Part shown: positions 8,538-16,048 of the stretch, piece after piece
Numbering within the stretch: position 1 is the first letter of the stretch
How the letters are laid out: each line of letters begins with the position of its first letter
Assembly (NCBI GenBank): GCA_030295235.1
Contig: AP026133.1
Location: 868,001 to 932,000, forward strand
Source of the DNA: Fistulifera solaris
Lineage: Eukaryota
Length of the DNA: 64,000 nucleotides
Reading direction: 5' to 3'
Program-made: the position numbers and the translations under genes
The notes under the pieces: generated by a model
The model's input: only the letters and a program-made list of their open reading frames with translations
Told to the model about the DNA's origin: nothing
The model's database searches: none

Positions 8538-11013
8538 TTAATCGACAGTAACTGCCTTGGCAAGATTTCGTGGAGTATCCGGGTTGATTCCTCTGAAAGT
8601 GAAAAGTGTGAGTCGAACTACTTCTTTTCATGCTGGCAGCACAGCCACAAGAAACGTACCGTAACATGGCCAACTCGTACGAAATCAACTGTAGTGGAAG
8701 AACAGCACCCAACGCGGTCAACGGACCATTGTTGGGGATGATGATGGGATCGTCGTCTAAATCACGGGCCAATTCAGCTTTGTCAGTAATAATTATGACT
8801 TGAGCTCCGCGTGCTTTCACTTCTTCTGCCGCAGTACGCATGTGATGCGCGTGCTGATCGTCTAGAATCAACATGATAATAGGCGTAGCACCAAACTTTC
8901 CGTTGTTGTCATCTTCAATCAACGCAAATGGACCGTGCTTCAAAGCGCCGCCACTGTACCCTTCGGCATGCAAGTAGCACATTTCTTTAATCTTCAAAGC
9001 ACCTTCCATAGCCACCGGTTCTCCATACCCTTTGCCCAAAACAAAGCAATGCTCCTTCGTATTGAGTTTTTGAGCCACCTTTTCACATTGTTGACGCGTT
9101 TTCAATGCCATACCGAAGGTAATGGGCAATCGCATGAGTGCTTCCTTCAATTTGATGGCCTCAATACTAGGTGGATGACCTTCGATTTTGTCCCTCGTTT
9201 GACGGAACCACAGAGCAATCAATGCCAAGACGGTGACTTGTGTGGTGAAGGCCTTGGTACTGGCCACGGCATTCTCGCGTCCCGCATTGCAGTAGACACC
9301 TGCCTTAGTCGTTCGGGCAATCAAACTACCGACGGCATTGACGACACTGAGTACATTGATGCCACGGTCCATGGCCGTATTCACAACACGAGCAACATCT
9401 TTCGTTTCACCACTTTGGGACACCACAATGAGTCCGGTCGATTCTGGATTCGACGGACAAGGAAAATCCTTGGGTTCCGTTTCAGCCGCATCCAACGAAT
9501 ACACACTATCAAAACTACCCAATTGCTTCATGAGGCGTTCACCGTACTTGGATGCATTGAGACTGGTCCCACAAGCCGACAAGACCATGTGTTTGATTTG
9601 ACTGAATCGATCAAAGTTCCCGTCCAACCCACCGAGATTGATGTTGTCCGCCCCCAATCGTCCACCAAAGCCCATGGCCCGGGCAATGGCTTCGGGCTGT
9701 TCGTAACACTCCCGGAGTGTCCAGTGCGGATACGGCGCCGGACTGAGTTTGACATCTTGATCGGGTGCCTTTTGTTTGCGTTTCAAGTCCAGTGACCGTC
9801 CGTCGGCATGCAACACACCAATTTCTCCATCTTTCATGGAAATGAAATTCTTGGTGTACCGATTGAACGCCGACGTTTCACTGGCGATGAAACAACGATC
9901 ATCTCCGATTCCAATCACGAGAGGGGAACCATTGCAGGCGACGACCAGTTCATCGGGCGAATCGACACACATGATCCCCAATCCCCAGGTGCCGTCACAC
10001 TTTTGCAGGGCCTGTTCGGTGGCATCACGGAGTGTCATGCCCGGATTGTTCGCGTAGACGTGTCCAATCAACTTGGCAATGACTTCCGTGTCAGTTTGTC
10101 CTTCAAATTGGTGTCCGAGTGCTTGCAACTCTCGTCGTAATTCGTTGGAGTTGTTGAGCGTTCCGTTGTGGACTAAGGCAATCTTCCCTGACGAATCGGT
10201 ATGAGGATGGGCATTTTCATCGGTTTTTCCACCATGTGTCGCCCAACGCGTATGCGCAATGCCTACCGAGTGTCCTACCGATGCTTGCGAATGATCACGG
10301 ACCATTTCAATGGAGTCGGCTTTTTCTCCGACACTGGCAAATTTGGTGATGGCCTAGAGAAGAAAAGAGAGAGAGAGAGGAGGGGGAGGGAAATAAGAGC
10401 GATAGTATGAGAGATTAAGAGCTAACATTTGCAAATGTCAATGTCTTTGTAATCATAAAAGTAACGCACCAATTTTCCTCCATGATTGTCCATGGTCGCA
10501 ATTCCAGCACTGTCATAACCACGATTCTTCAAAATGGTCAATCCATCGACCAAAAAAGTCACTGTGGGAATGATGATCCGAAAGCAGATAGATAAATACT
10601 CGACGTGAGAAATCGACAGAAGAAACAGAATGAATCAATCAATCAATCAATGAAACAAAAGAACATGTTTTCGTATCCGACTCTTTCCCGTTGTGTTGTT
10701 TCTTACGGTTTTTCGTTCATTATTTCATTATTCGCTGATATTCATTCGTTCAGACGTACCGTGCTTCGACGCCTTTCAAGGCCACAATTCCAGCAATCCC
10801 ACAACACTCGGCTTTTTGTTGTTCTTGTTGTTGCCATACCGCCATGGCAGTGACCGCCGCGGCCGCCACTATCCAGGAACGATCGTTCTTTTGGTGGGTC
10901 GACGACGACGACGACGACGACGACAAGGTCGAGAAAGCCGCGAATGTCGTCGGACGTCTCGTTATCGACATCGACTGGACGATTAGTTTTCGAGATGTCA
11001 ACCACAATGTCAT
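8538..11013 (-). CDS. GFA1: Glutamine:fructose-6-phosphate aminotransferase (GFAT), 4 exons, with an N-terminal presequence
   Basis: Exons 11013-10760, 10561-10470, 10353-8660 and 8592-8538 with GT-AG introns. Motifs [49 protein letters not shown], and C-terminal [11 protein letters not shown]. Confidence 0.95.
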
Positions 11014-11648
11014 TTTCAAAGAGAGAGAGAGTGCAAGGAAATCAATGAAGATACGACTAGCTCTCACACACTTGAAAGGCAATGAATGAGCGAATCAAAT
11101 AATCGACAACGACTACACAATACGCAATCCAAACATTATACCGGTAGTCGCACGAAAAGCCAACAAAGCCGGGTCATCGTCCCCTGTCCTCTCCCAAGAA
11201 TGCCAGCATACAAGATACGCGGAGTCCCGAGGAGCACTCTTCCGTGGAGGGTGTCCAAGGCTACTGTTTTCGATAGAGTACAAGACGTTTTTCGCTCGAC
11301 CGGATACAAGAATGTACCATCCGTGACCGGTGGGATTTTGATATCGGGATTCGTGATTGTGACTTTTCACTTTTCACGTTTGTTGAAGTGGTCTGTCGTC
11401 TGTCGTCTGTCGTCTGTCGCGTTTTTTTTCGCACGCATCGCAATCGCGTGACTCAAAAATTCATTCACGTTTTTGCGGGAAAAAGAGAGATCGCGAAGCC
11501 GCAACAACGATGAGGATGATGATCATTCAATAATGCCTATAGCACTGCTAGCTACCCATTTCTTCGTTCCTTTTCTTTTTTGATTCTGTTCTGCACTCGA
11601 TCCACTTTATACCATTACTCTCCTCCTATCCCGTGACTCATAATATAT

Positions 11649-14161
11649 ATGAATCATCATCATAATATCACCAACTCTTTCTCGCCGTCACAAATTTGTG
11701 CTTCACTGACGATTCAAGAGGCACACTGGCCCGAATCATGTCCTCCAGAAGAAGGATTTCTTTCTGTTATTACTGGGAATACACATTGTAAATTTGCCTA
11801 TCATGATGGAAGTGATTATCGTCCTCGGTCCTTTTGGAGGTACGTGTTGGAGTGGTGTTCGAAGAAAAGAAAGAAAAGAAATGGAAAGGCACATTACTCA
11901 TCAACATCCTTCTCTTTATTCTTTCTTCTTTTTTTCTTTTTTTCTTATTTAGTATTCCCGTTGCACCGTTGTCACACAACAATCACACGACACAAAATAA
12001 CCGAGACAGTTTTCTGGAATCCATTCCCCATCAATGTACTGCGGCACAAGCCTTGTGGAAATCACCCAATGATACAATCATCAAGCCACTCACACGCGCG
12101 GCCATCTATTATTATCGCGTCACCACGAAACGAATTCCGACCGTCACAATCTATCTCATTTCGACCAATCCTGTTCATGAAAGCATATTAGGACAATGGT
12201 TGCAAGGATTGCCTGTACGATGCATTCGATTGCGTCCGAAGGATGTTGTGTCAATGTCCTTGCCGTATCCGACAATGGGGATGGATCGATTTGTCGCGGT
12301 ACAAGCCATTTCGAAATATCCCGCACTCATTGTAGATGGAGGAACGGCTTTGACGACGACTGTATTGAATGAAAATGGACACATGGTCGGTGGAACGATT
12401 GCACCGGGTTGTATGCGCAATGTCGGGCATTGCATATGGGAAATTTGCCGCTCTTGACACCGGACGAAATACAGCAATTCATGGAACGTAACGAACCTTT
12501 ACCATTGTGGGCGAACAATACTCACGACGCCATGTGGAATGGAGTAATGAGGAGTACGGCTTTGTTCATACGCGCGGTGGTGCGGGAATTTTTGCAGCAG
12601 TATCACGTGCCGGCTAAGAATGGTTCAACAATCGTACATGTGATTGTGACAGGATCGGATGGACCGTTCCTGATGAAATTCTTAAAATCCGAATCATGTC
12701 ACCGATTGTTGGCCCAGATGCCCCGCGATAGTGACTTTGAGTGTGATGACACCACCGTGATGGAATACAATCCACATTTGCTGCATTTTGGCATAACACA
12801 GATTCTGTTGCAGCATCGAGAGAGTAATGATGTCGATGAGTCGTTTCACTCGGAATGGATTGGATTGCGGGTCGCACGGAATGTTGGGCGTGGATATGTG
12901 GATCGGGTCGAACAAACGGAGAATTTGGCACAAGCTTTGTTTCATGTCGTCTATGATCATGGTTGTAGCGAAGTTTTGGGGGTACTGGCATTCTATGGTA
13001 TGTGTCTGTTGCATATTTTGTCGAACTGTATAACTGTTTCTGACAAAAAGGCACTTTCGGGAATCAGATGCTTTGATTCGATACAGTCTAAACGGAGAGA
13101 GTATTGCGACAGTCAACATGACGGAGAGTTCCGCTGTCGAACGAAAACAAAAGGAAGCAGAACGAGCCGCCGCTTTGCTGGTGGAACGGTGTGCCGTCGT
13201 CAAAGAACACAAGGAAAGTACTATTGGTGCCCCGCCTGTGTTTAGTCCAGAGAAAGCGCTGCAAGGGAATGCGTTGTTGCCACATTACATTATACCAAAC
13301 GGGCCAACGCCAGTATTTAGTCCAGGACGAGCCAGGGCGCCACCGAGTCGGAAACGTGGTCGACCTCGAAAGAATTCTCTGTCCCCGCAGCCGATTTTGA
13401 ACGGAGCGATTGCAACAGAAACGAGCAGAAACGTTTCATCACCGCAACTGAGTAGTATCTCATCCAAACGCGGCCGACCTCGCAAGAATCCATTGTCCGC
13501 GACGCTAGTTCCGAATGAGGCGATTGTTGCTAAAACAGGAATGAATGTTTCGGTATCGCAACAGAGTAGCACGCCACGTAAACGTGGTCGACCTCGAACG
13601 AATCCTCTGTCCCTGCAACCGGTTTTGAGTCCAGGTCAAGCGACTAAACGAGGTCGACCTCGAAAGAGTTCTTTGTCCCTGCAACCGGTATCTAATCAGA
13701 ATGAAGCAACTGTAACAGAAAAGGACCTCAATACACTAGCGCTGCCGCAGAGTTCGTCACGCAAACGAGGTCGACCGCGCAAAGATTCTATGCCTACGAG
13801 TCCAGATCGAGCTCCTAGAATGGATCCGAATGACGAGGCAACGGCGTCGCAGCAGAAGCAGAGTACGCCACACAAAGTTGGTCGTCCTCGAAAAAATCCT
13901 ATGAGTTCAAACAAACAAGATCGAAGGCGAAAAGAGTTTCGAAATACTCTGCCTGACGGTGTCCTACCAACGGATTATGTACACCGCCGCGTCGCTAAAT
14001 TCTTTGGGGATGGAAAGACCCCGTTTTACGGAAAAGTTGAGTCTTACGATCCCGAGAGTCAATATTGGAAAATATTGTACGACGATGGAGATGAAGAAGA
14101 AATGGAGTTCTATGAACTAGTTGTTCAATTGAAATGCTATGAAGAGAATAATAATGAGTAG
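11649..14161 (+). CDS. Type III pantothenate kinase (CoaX-like) domain fused to Tudor-like domains and six AT-hooks
   Basis: ITGNTH, MGMDR, IVDGGTALT, GGTIAPG, NTHDAM..GV and VIVTGSDG motifs. Introns 11840-11952 and 12998-13067 join the frames; one-base deletion in the G-run near 12407. Six GRPR[K/T] repeats. C-terminal VAKFFG..FYGKVESYD...WKILYDDGDEEEM. Confidence 0.8.
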
Positions 14162-14813
14162 AACCATGCTTGAGAGCTTGGTAGGCATCTAGTTTCATCT
14201 TCTAAAAGTCTTACGCTAATTCCCAAAACAACATTTAACGCAGACAGCTCCTCCTTTATTCTACCAACTGGGGCCTCGCAATCGAGTTTCGAATCAGCCA
14301 AAGGAGTATACTCCTTTGAATCAGCTATGAGTAGCCTTAGCTCTCTCGTTCTCGAGTGACCACGTTTTTTGTCGTCAGGCGCCGAGAGCTGACTACGGTT
14401 TCATTTCCAACGGAAAAGGATCGTGTTAAATAGTGTGCGTGGTACATAATGGTGATATAATTCGTTTCCTGACACTACGTAGTACTTCAAGTAGAGGGAC
14501 AGCACATTATTCCGCGATTCCGTTCGACCAATACTCCCCCTTCCGCGCAACGTGTTTTCCCACGATCGCTCCCTACGAACGATCTCCGCTGTCAACAAAG
14601 AGAAAAGAGATGCAAGAGGAACTGAGGTGAAAGAGCTTTTTTAGAAAAGGCTTTCATTGCTTTCCACTCGAATGTTGAACTCATCCAGCAAAAGTGAAAG
14701 GACCAAATTGTAGATTGGACTTTGCACAAATTAATAGGGTACTTTCCGTGAGCACTTGAATGACAAGCGGAGCGTGAAAGGTATTATCAAATTCCCCCCT
14801 CACCTCCGACACC

Positions 14814-16048
14814 ATGTCTGGAAAGAGTTATATGTGGCGTGTGGCAGCGCTTCTAGTTGTAATGGGTCATGTGATACTACTCGCAAGTCGATCGCTACCT
14901 TCATTCAATATACCGCGACAATCGCAGCAACGCCAGCTTTCGACGAAAGAATCTCGAACGTGCTCTCTTTCCGAGGAAACATTACGCTTCCAGTTTCATG
15001 AATGGACGAAGACTTATCGTCTCGTCTCGGATGGTACAACCGCCGATGAACGATGGAAATGGACCGTTGATAATTCCTTCAATCAATCCGTAGCGAATAA
15101 GGGGACAAATATTTCCAATCAGAACGAAACGAACCGACTGTTACAAGCCGGAAACAGCAACAATACGACAACGAATCCGGTGACGTTGCGAACCTTTCAC
15201 AAACCAACGGAGCCATTATTGAAGTACGCGCGTGTTGGTGTGCCGAAGCTTATCTGCATCGACCTATTGAATATTGCCCGGCCAGTTTTGATACATGCCT
15301 CGTACGAGGAGAGGAAGGTTTGGTATCATGCTACACGACTACCGGCTCTCATGGTTTTATGAGAAGCTTTTGGCCGTTGGCGTCGTTCTGGATTCTGGCG
15401 CTGGCTTATGCTTTGACATGTACGGACGGAGGTACTTGGGCGCGGCAATACATTCGACGGATACTTGCGCATCCCTCGGAGGGCCAAGTCATGTTGGAGG
15501 AAAATTTGGATCAGTTGCTGGAGGAACGACCCGAACACGCCGTGTTTTTATATCGACAAGCAGTCATGCGGATACGACAAGCCTATTTGGAACCGAGACG
15601 GCGGCGGGAATGGTTTTCCACCTCGAGCGATTCGGATGAATCGCACGCAACGCCAGATGGTGGGGATTTTTTGGAGGCCCCTCGCGATGCATTAATATTA
15701 AAAATCACGACGTATGACGAACCGTCCTCGATGGCACTTCGAACGTCATCCGTGGCAAGGAATAACACGACATCATGGCGTTATGATCAAATCACTTTTC
15801 AGCAAATGGATAGTCAAATGGAGCAAGGACTCCGATGCGCTATTTGTTTGGTGCGTCTGGAGCAGGGAGATGCTGTAGGAGATATTCCTTGCGGCCATGT
15901 ATATCACAAAGCTTGCTTAAAAAGTTGGTTACCGCAAGCCAATCGCTGTCCCTTGTGTCGACACCCTGAAATTGCTACTTTACGGACACGTCGCCCCATT
16001 TCGCAACCAGCATCTATCAGCGAGCTATCAATAGCTCAAATTTACTAA
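14814..16048 (+). CDS. Membrane-anchored RING-H2 E3 ubiquitin ligase-like protein (frameshift near 15320)
   Basis: CAICLVRLEQGDAVGDIPCGHVYHKACLKSWLPQANRCPLCR is a RING-H2 finger. N-terminal hydrophobic signal and a TM segment (FWPLASFWILALAYAL). Confidence 0.8.

Follow-up and report, generated by a model that had tools for sequence, protein, structure and literature searches.

We analysed a 64,000-nucleotide stretch of the Fistulifera solaris genome (the window; contig AP026133.1 of assembly GCA_030295235.1, positions 868,001–932,000 of the forward strand). Positions 11649–14161 of this window form a three-exon gene that encodes a type III pantothenate kinase (PanK) domain followed by a Tudor-like module, a basic linker with six AT-hooks and a second, C-terminal Tudor domain. 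The gene and all of its features lie on the plus strand, with the ATG at 11649 and a TAG at 14159–14161. Its product is represented by a deposited 776-amino-acid protein (P0001; found with the second half of exon 2), which carries the source name ‘type III pantothenate kinase [Fistulifera solaris]’ and the precomputed Pfam domains PF03309, PF21743 and PF02178. A preliminary description of the sequence had proposed a type III PanK fused to chromatin-type modules, and this architecture was borne out by profile and structure comparisons, with the named motifs, the six AT-hooks and the C-terminal Tudor all located where it had placed them.

Exon 1 (11649–11839) contains the start codon, a 32-residue N-terminal extension, strands β1–β3 of the PanK fold and the PHOSPHATE 1 loop, ITGNT. 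Intron 1 (11840–11952; 113 nucleotides, T-rich, phase 2) leads into exon 2 (11953–12997), which holds the rest of the PanK domain, as placed by PF03309, TIGR00671 and the motif coordinates, together with four strands of Tudor module 1. Intron 2 (12998–13067; 70 nucleotides, phase 1) precedes exon 3 (13068–14161), which encodes the Tudor 1 helix, a helical segment (13118–13222), the AT-hook linker, Tudor 2 and the stop codon; if intron 2 is retained, the frame stays open until a stop at 13245. The introns had been described as canonical and frame-restoring, and that part holds: both are GT..AG, and both junctions (SFW/S/IPV and AFY/D/ALIRY) are the same in P0001. An additional frame break at 12405–12408 had been overlooked. 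The first splice is independently supported because exon 1 supplies strands β1–β3 of the PanK fold, and in the AlphaFold2 model the chain is folded with high confidence through both splice junctions. Exon 2 alone encodes the C-terminal half of the PanK together with the four Tudor 1 strands, so their join needs no splicing. We found no hydrophobic N-terminal signal in the first 60 residues (highest Kyte–Doolittle 15-mer average, 0.59). Diatom plastid proteins take a signal-peptide route, and the lack of such a signal argues against that route here.

The frame break at 12405–12408, within the PanK domain, is a G-run one base short: the window reads CCGGGTTG where CCGGGGTTG is expected. One frame reads GGTIAPG at this point and stops at 12455, and the neighbouring frame goes on with LYAQCRALHMGNLPLL. 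Translation of the window exons gives P0001 letter for letter for 215 residues, then lacks G216, and then matches for a further 560 residues; P0001 itself reads IAPGLYAQ across the break point. An extra G behind 12405 is present at full depth (17/17, 6.4/6.4 and 6.2/6.2) in the contigs of all three public runs, which belong to one study and may be the source of the assembly itself. Because all three runs carry the G and the window with the G gives P0001 exactly, the break is an assembly homopolymer indel and no pseudogene lesion. Repair by an intron was considered and rejected: the only GT..AG candidates, from 12408 or 12411 to 12474, are 67 and 64 nucleotides long, both 1 mod 3, when 2 mod 3 is needed, and they would also remove the conserved ALHxGxLP segment. 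A second single-base indel relative to the same contigs, an A put in behind 11479, falls within an A-run upstream of the gene. Given that the window differs by homopolymer indels at both 11479 and 12405, further apparent frameshifts in this assembly may be homopolymer errors too.

The kinase domain (11745–12819, interrupted by intron 1; residues 33–353) is identified far beyond chance by profiles and by structure. The Pan_kinase profile, whose absence the preliminary description had named as decisive, matches P0001 with 68.1 bits (PF03309; cut-off, 24.7) and the window piece 11954–12454 with 43.9 bits, and the ‘baf’ subfamily model TIGR00671 scores 81.3 (cut-off, 58.2) over residues 39–318. 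No NCBIfam equivalog cut-off was reached by P0001; the best model was NF009871, with 90.4 bits against a cut-off of 251. We built an AlphaFold2 model from a 73-row family alignment, in which the predicted local distance difference test score (pLDDT) exceeds 90 for most of residues 20–365, including the exon 1 strands at 36–42, 46–53 and 59–66. In a VIA comparison, model residues 33–351 matched the type III PanK 2gtd_A with Z 20.7 and a root mean square deviation of 3.1 over 239 of 248 residues, followed by the other type III PanKs 9b78_A (Z 20.6), 3djc (20.5) and 4o5f (20.1); in the next ASKHA family, the best non-PanK match reached Z 12.8. The top Foldseek match was 5b8h (E 1.8e-13), the top 15 matches listed were all type III PanKs, and the family profile reached E 1.7e-31 against the PDB.

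The motifs of the domain include ITGNT (PHOSPHATE 1, 11769–11783), in which Gly-Asn-Thr is kept and Ile41 occupies the Asp position; GMDR (12278–12289; residues 173–176); DGGTA (PHOSPHATE 2, 12335–12349; residues 192–196); the adenosine-binding loop GGTIAPG (12389–12409); and TGS (12649–12657), the counterpart of the TGG motif, in which position 299 is Ser. The Asp of DxGN[ST] corresponds to Asp6 of Thermotoga maritima, and the general-base Asp of GxDR and the PHOSPHATE 2 Asp correspond to Asp105 and Asp125 of the same enzyme; the positions of all three were checked on an alignment with 3bex.

To place these motifs in their family, we used an exhaustive HMMER search with residues 65–216, which returned 155 proteins at E up to 1e-3. 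Of 153 proteins (152 and a second F. solaris copy), 139 contain the GxDR...DxGTA core and were aligned, and the 14 without it were dropped; we split the aligned rows by length and by the GG[GT][IV]xPG loop into 102 diatom-type and 37 bacterial-type sequences. G173, D175, R176, D192, G194, A196, T198, G211 and G216 occur in all 102 diatom-type relatives, of which 94 have T and 8 have S at position 195; D175 and D192 are also present in 37/37 bacterial-type sequences. Position 299 is G in 86/97 diatom-type sequences and S in 9/97, P0001 among the nine. The absence of the PHOSPHATE 1 Asp, which recurs in cyanobacterial CoaX loci and in most diatom relatives (see below), defines a sub-clade and does not exclude the protein from the type III PanKs.

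The PanK domain is also predicted to form a homodimer (residues 20–365), with an ipSAE of 0.82 compared with 0.01 for the best of three controls; all contacts recur between the runs (100% agreement), and pLDDT does not fall below 83 for the partner. Calibration on solved structures put 20/30 one-chain pairs and 1/23 single chains past the mark used. Because type III PanK dimers are among the solved structures, this pass may stem from recall of those dimers.

The C-terminal Tudor (Tudor 2; 13973–14143, residues 715–771) matches PF21743, of the PTM/DIR17-like and RDM15/PDS5C-like type, with 45.3 bits (cut-off, 27.2; E 7e-12), and the DIR17 literature classes PF21743 as an SH3-like Tudor. AlphaFold2 predicts four strands followed by a helix, with pLDDT above 90. 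A profile of eight family Tudor 2 domains found 7de9_A as its best PDB match (E 4e-4). This is the Tudor of Arabidopsis RDM15/PDS5C bound to H3K4me1 (bioRxiv 10.1101/2022.05.28.493846; PMC8184781). The aromatic cage of RDM15 consists of W616, Y623 and Y641, the monomethylammonium group is held by D643 and D645, and H3R2 is bound by E647 (PMC8184781). On alignment with 7de9, which reads YDDGDQE at this point, Y750, D752, D754 and E756 of P0001 fall on Y641, D643, D645 and E647 of the residues so described, and F732 falls on Y623; the equivalent of W616 lies just outside the alignment, with F725 as its probable candidate. The Y-x-D-x-D-x-E signature is invariant in the eight aligned Tudor 2 domains, and 64/102 diatom-type relatives carry at least one such motif. 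The C-terminal Tudor thus carries the methyl-lysine reader signature of RDM15/PDS5C, and we predict that it is a reader. Matches of Tudor 2 to Kelch, SAKe and KEAP1 were rejected as spurious: they are summed weak repeats of ‘YDPExxxW’, and none of the stretches passes alone. The segment VESYDPESQYW (13976–14158 region of the window) mimics a Kelch-repeat motif and draws six-bladed designer Kelch, KLHL and KEAP1 matches, which makes it a trap for automatic annotation.

Tudor-like module 1 (12856–13093, across intron 2; residues 366–421) starts with WIGLRVAR...FHVVYDHG and was modelled with strands at 370–373, 376–384, 393–398 and 403–406 and a helix at 408–421, with pLDDT around 90. This topology equals that of Tudor 2, but the similarity in sequence is weak: it has no Pfam match, and a custom hidden Markov model of the family Tudors detects it with an independent E-value of 0.006 over residues 366–408. 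The preliminary description was right to see a Tudor-like segment and was mistaken in joining it to the kinase through an intron: the four strands lie in exon 2, as does the C-terminal half of the PanK domain, and the last helix alone crosses intron 2.

Beyond Tudor 1, helices at residues 430–464 give way to a disordered basic linker that contains the six AT-hooks (13349–13900). Pfam AT_hook (PF02178) matches this segment in four stretches (E 1.2e-8), and a regular expression finds six GRP cores, five RGRP and one VGRP, in the hooks RKRGRPRKNS, SKRGRPRKNP, RKRGRPRTNP, TKRGRPRKSS, RKRGRPRKDS and HKVGRPRKNP. Nearly all of residues 470–704 have pLDDT below 50, and the linker holds 46 Lys and Arg in 235 residues. 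A 30-nucleotide DNA repeat underlies the hooks; its six copies have 73–100% identity to the reference copy and spacings that are multiples of 3. The repeat is dispersed, and Tandem Repeats Finder reported nothing in the AT-hook region.

A domain search and a survey of diatom architectures, both suggested in the preliminary description, were carried out on 115 relatives: the best 80 at E up to 1e-3, then the 34 longer ones of the 72 that were not in this first scan, and the second F. solaris copy. Both PF03309 and PF21743 match 45 of the best 80 (Tudor at the Pfam cut-off in 28) and 19 of the further 35 (above the cut-off in 12), which amounts to 64/115 with both domains, 40 of the 64 reaching the Pfam Tudor cut-off. 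Eight of 20 diatom-type clusters that we looked up have an organism name, and all of these are raphid pennates: F. solaris, Entomoneis paludosa, Entomoneis sp. CCMP467, Entomoneis sp. CCMP2396, Nitzschia sp. Nitz4, Cylindrotheca fusiformis, Mayamaea pseudoterrestris and Epithemia clementina. The ESM Atlas cluster is eukaryotic, with Bacillariophyta the commonest. Three Entomoneis proteins have PanK and Tudor in one open reading frame (ORF), and since their source is MMETSP transcriptome assemblies, a single mRNA carries the fusion in that genus. The PanK–Tudor fusion is therefore a family trait that is conserved across raphid diatoms. AT_hook was found in only 2 of the 115 relatives, both from F. 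solaris, and among the relatives scanned the AT-hooks are thus confined to Fistulifera. A full-text search, from whose coverage most subscription journals are absent, returned no paper describing a PanK–Tudor/AT-hook family; automatic database labels are the one place where the architecture shows up.

The second F. solaris copy (P0154; GAX26643.1, 748 amino acids) keeps the entire architecture, with the following identities to P0001: PanK, 80%; Tudor 1, 84%; helices, 88%; Tudor 2, 85%; and AT-hook linker, 63% (29 gap columns). Because F. solaris is allodiploid, this copy is probably a homeolog. Automatic models of it look mis-built. P0154 and the JGI model P0002 begin inside the equivalent of intron 1 and hence lack the PHOSPHATE 1 exon, P0002 also reads into the equivalent of intron 2, and P0155 consists of the AT-hook and Tudor half only. 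Elsewhere in the family, a protein of 1,593 amino acids (P0105) has its PanK at 1145–1247 and its Tudor at 1535–1580, preceded by a long N-terminal part with no Pfam match; it may represent either a larger fusion or gene models that were merged.

The first motif connects the diatom proteins to cyanobacteria. Its diatom-type consensus is [VSI]-C-G-N-[ST]-x-x-H-W-A, and that of the nearest bacterial sequences is [MVIA]-[IV]-G-N-S-R-x-H-W-A, both without Asp; the Asp is missing in nearly all diatom relatives. We gathered 80 genome loci with one peptide pattern, which sampled the phyla Cyanobacteriota and Bacteroidota. Among cyanobacterial loci with a recognizable first motif, Asp occurs in 0/24 (M in 9, E in 7, I in 4 and A in 4), and 8 more lack a recognizable motif; among Bacteroidota loci with the motif, Asp occurs in 35/37, and 10 more lack the motif. 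The preliminary description had correctly read ITGNT in place of DxGNT and had entertained a pseudo-enzyme. With Asp absent from all 24 cyanobacterial copies and from nearly all diatom relatives, the motif gives no pointer in that direction. The Asp-less first motif is instead a trait of the cyanobacterial and diatom clade, probably ancestral to it, and the tempting reading of it as the mark of a dead enzyme can be set aside.

Other comparisons point the same way. The ten nearest short relatives include four clusters with an organism name, all four cyanobacterial (Limnothrix, Merismopedia, Synechococcales and Cyanothece). Among NCBIfam models, the cyanobacterial equivalog NF009871 scores best with 3/3 diatom proteins tested, and a Merismopedia protein passes its cut-off. 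In the ESM Atlas, a Cyanobacteriota cluster comes next after the diatom cluster. Synechocystis is described as using CoaX for the PanK step, and cyanobacteria are annotated as relying on CoaX, in a published review (PMC7133116). We also computed a quick maximum-likelihood tree of 111 rows, whose diatom rows all have the N-terminal motif and whose loci were limited to 24 per phylum and to lengths of 220–330 amino acids; it is no broad test, because the peptide pattern sampled only Cyanobacteriota and Bacteroidota. A cyanobacterial origin of the diatom PanK domain is thus likely, although short of proof. One 430-residue protein (P0130) stands among the cyanobacteria in the tree and yet has a 160-residue N-terminal extension. 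A word-index search with P0001 residues 1–450 returned P0001 alone, and the same search with the family alignment returned P0001 and three close F. solaris-type models; the candidate lists of both were swamped, so that they give no measure of taxonomic range.

Compared with bacterial CoaX (T. maritima 2GTD/3BEX; cyanobacterial NF009871/PRK13331), the diatom protein shares the ASKHA fold over the whole enzyme, the GxDR, DxGTA, GGxIxPG and TG[GS] motifs, a predicted symmetric dimer formed via the same loops and, with the cyanobacterial enzymes, the Asp-less xxGN[ST]xxHW first motif. It differs in being eukaryotic with introns, in its roughly 420 extra C-terminal residues (two Tudors and six AT-hooks), in an insertion of about 16 residues after β3 and in lineage-specific substitutions, and P0001 scores far below the cyanobacterial equivalog cut-off (90 versus 251 bits). 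From plant RDM15/PDS5C it is distinguished by neither the Tudor type nor the Y-x-D-x-D-x-E signature with a preceding aromatic residue. The broader layout of a reader, a long disordered linker and an active module also recalls plant PDS5C and MSH6 (bioRxiv 10.1101/2022.05.28.493846 and 10.1101/2024.10.15.618488). Here, however, the tethered module is a small-molecule kinase instead of a cohesin or mismatch-repair factor, and the Tudor is C-terminal.

Two further groups of PanK-fold proteins offer partial parallels. Type II PanKs also have ASKHA folds and are of a distinct type (best type II match, 6uj5, Z 11.4). The mammalian enzymes are feedback-regulated by acyl-CoA, to which type III enzymes are reported to be insensitive. 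Mammalian type II PanKs resemble the diatom protein in that a PanK isoform is sent to the nucleus by an appended terminus: PanK1α is described as nuclear or nucleolar, and human PanK2 as having a nuclear localization signal and a nuclear export signal (PMC3496714). These isoforms rely on targeting signals and are not known to carry histone-reader or AT-hook modules. The Campylobacter jejuni protein 2NRH, a ‘putative transcriptional activator’ of the Baf (Bvg accessory factor) type, is a CoaX-fold protein that has historically been linked to transcription (VIA Z 16.2; family profile, E 4.5e-13); unlike the eukaryotic, multidomain diatom protein, it consists of a single domain and is bacterial. 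Baf of Bordetella has a transcriptional role.

We read the locus as an intact nuclear gene for a homodimeric type III PanK of cyanobacterial ancestry that is held on chromatin by reader modules, and give this reading a probability of about 0.45. The product is most likely a chromatin-tethered dimeric PanK-fold protein. Because the putative general-base Asp (GMDR), PHOSPHATE 2 (DGGTA) and the adenosine loops are kept, the kinase domain should bind both ATP and pantothenate, and it most likely retains the ability to phosphorylate pantothenate. Tudor 2 would rely on the aromatic and acidic residues by which RDM15/PDS5C recognizes H3K4me1. Binding to AT-rich minor grooves would fall to the six AT-hooks, which would double as nuclear localization signals, and Tudor 1 in F. 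solaris is probably only a structural remnant. Each dimer would carry two flexible anchors to chromatin, with Tudor 2 and, in Fistulifera, the AT-hooks holding it through long flexible linkers on chromatin that is AT-rich and methylated at H3K4. Its purpose could be the local production of 4′-phosphopantothenate, or it could simply be a compartmentalized PanK. What the data show directly are the gene structure, the folds and motifs, the conservation of the PanK–Tudor fusion in raphid diatoms and the clade-wide lack of the first-motif Asp; nuclear and chromatin location, histone-mark specificity, dimerization in vivo, catalysis and purpose are all inferred.

Several observations weigh against this reading. 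4′-Phosphopantothenate, the product of PanK, lies four enzymatic steps before coenzyme A (CoA), and its production has no obvious benefit on chromatin. The F. solaris lineage differs at the family-conserved positions C42T, H48K, W49F, F162V, Y199T, G212T, E265S and G299S, which could mean lowered or lost activity in this lineage. Conservation of the PHOSPHATE 1 loop is lower among the diatom sequences than among the bacterial ones: G43 is found in 33/46 diatom-type compared with 32/32 bacterial sequences, a comparison confounded by poor N-terminal gene models. Tudor 1 of P0001 has the signature YDHGCSE, in which both cage Asp residues are lost; other diatoms keep YDDGDxE in both Tudors. In the tree, diatom and cyanobacterial rows split from Bacteroidota at a Shimodaira–Hasegawa-like approximate likelihood ratio (SH-aLRT) of only 79, and P0001 itself sits on a long branch that the tree does not resolve. 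The contigs of the public runs behave as DNA, as they retain both introns and the intergenic flanks. Finally, CoaX of Mycobacterium tuberculosis is described as a non-catalytic pantothenate sensor despite near-intact motifs (PMC11626117). The preliminary suggestion that the fusion might feed histone acylation is weak and not supported as it was argued: CoA is four steps away from the kinase product, and nothing places the enzymes for those steps on chromatin.

The M. tuberculosis protein raises the alternative that the diatom dimer is a chromatin-resident pseudo-kinase or metabolite sensor, which would bind pantothenate and ATP without turnover, its occupancy changing what the anchored dimer recruits or occludes. 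Such a protein would couple vitamin B5 or CoA-precursor status to transcription and would be a eukaryotic counterpart of M. tuberculosis CoaX. The latter is described as a pantothenate-binding pseudokinase that does not phosphorylate, regulates PanB depupylation and has two Gly residues replaced (R8 and H229) with the rest of the fold kept (PMC11626117). Both proteins would use the type III PanK fold, in the diatom only possibly, for regulation instead of bulk CoA synthesis, and 9b78, the M. tuberculosis structure, is as close to our model as the active PanKs are. The substitutions at family-conserved sites, TGG to TGS among them, fit a sensor, as does the shared fold of the C. jejuni ‘Baf family transcriptional activator’, and reader domains confer location with no obvious need for catalysis. 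However, the Gly of xxGNT that is Arg (R8) in M. tuberculosis is kept in the diatom protein as G43, and the three core motifs are invariant or nearly so in the 102 relatives, a pattern as compatible with catalysis as with binding, if not more so. Besides the anchors, the protein has no output or effector domain. The M. tuberculosis protein acts on the Dop depupylase and is not known to have reader domains, whereas the diatom protein has them. For the second replaced Gly (H229, compared with S299), a 66-residue piece gave only insignificant adseverin/gelsolin matches. The diatom protein does not belong to the actinobacterial CoaX pseudokinase group, although it may still work in a sensor-like way; overall, we consider a sensor without turnover somewhat less likely than an active tethered kinase.

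Less probable again is an ordinary housekeeping diatom PanK, perhaps the only one, whose tail serves, for example, protein or RNA binding, stability or nuclear storage and whose link to chromatin is incidental. The conserved catalytic motifs are what such an enzyme would show, cyanobacteria use CoaX as their PanK (PMC7133116), and mammalian PanK1α is nuclear or nucleolar, with no chromatin role known for it (PMC3496714). With AT-hooks in just the two F. solaris proteins among the 115 relatives scanned, these elements are also not essential to the family. Set against this, the Tudor 2 signature is invariant in the eight aligned domains and matches the H3K4me1- and H3R2-binding residues of RDM15, and the presence of a Tudor motif in 64/102 diatom-type relatives is hard to explain without selection at the level of the ligand. 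It is very improbable that the gene is an artefact or in decay, either as a pseudogene with a frame break or as a model that wrongly joins a PanK gene to a downstream AT-hook/Tudor gene. The window DNA is indeed out of frame at 12405–12408, and two automatic models of a relative end within intron 2 or begin within intron 1. This explanation is already largely refuted, as the missing G is present in 3/3 runs and the deposited protein is complete; P0154 shares the architecture, at 80–88% identity in the structured domains and 63% in the linker; PanK and Tudor 1 share an exon, and the Entomoneis transcriptome proteins carry PanK and Tudor in one ORF; and the predicted fold spans both splice junctions.

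Returning to the chromatin-held PanK, a more specific and less likely version would have the PanK-fold dimer either sense vitamin B5 and ATP status while residing on chromatin or supply 4′-phosphopantothenate locally. In this version, the RDM15/PDS5C-type Tudor would park the dimer on H3K4-methylated gene bodies, the six AT-hooks added in the oleaginous F. solaris would strengthen the tether, and the whole would be a raphid-diatom invention that wires CoA-precursor supply directly to chromatin state with an enzyme from the cyanobacterial ancestor of plastids. Type III PanK, which is treated as bacterial, occurs here in a conserved eukaryotic protein of nuclear type, which puts the first step of CoA synthesis into one polypeptide with a predicted reader of a histone mark. 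If the Tudor does read H3K4me1 and the kinase is active or responsive to its ligand, diatoms would offer a compact and genetically tractable metabolic enzyme or sensor that is hard-wired to chromatin. In animals, the connection between metabolism and chromatin is usually approached indirectly, through nuclear ACLY, ACSS2 and PanK1α.

Four tandem copies of GTCTGTC at 11391–11418, about 230 nucleotides upstream of the start codon, are followed by a T-run. Further upstream, ORFs at 10739–11094 on both strands have long Asp, Thr or Ser homopolymer runs that derive from a GAT/GAC-rich repeat; the minus-strand ORF at 10750–11094, the only one scanned in this region, has no Pfam match, and the same is true of the minus-strand ORF at 10422–10634. 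Downstream, an ORF at 15101–16048 on the plus strand encodes a RING-H2 finger (PF13639, zf-RING_2; E 2.5e-13, residues 245–287) and overlaps an ORF at 14778–15362 that has no Pfam match. The RING-H2 protein is probably an E3 ubiquitin ligase.

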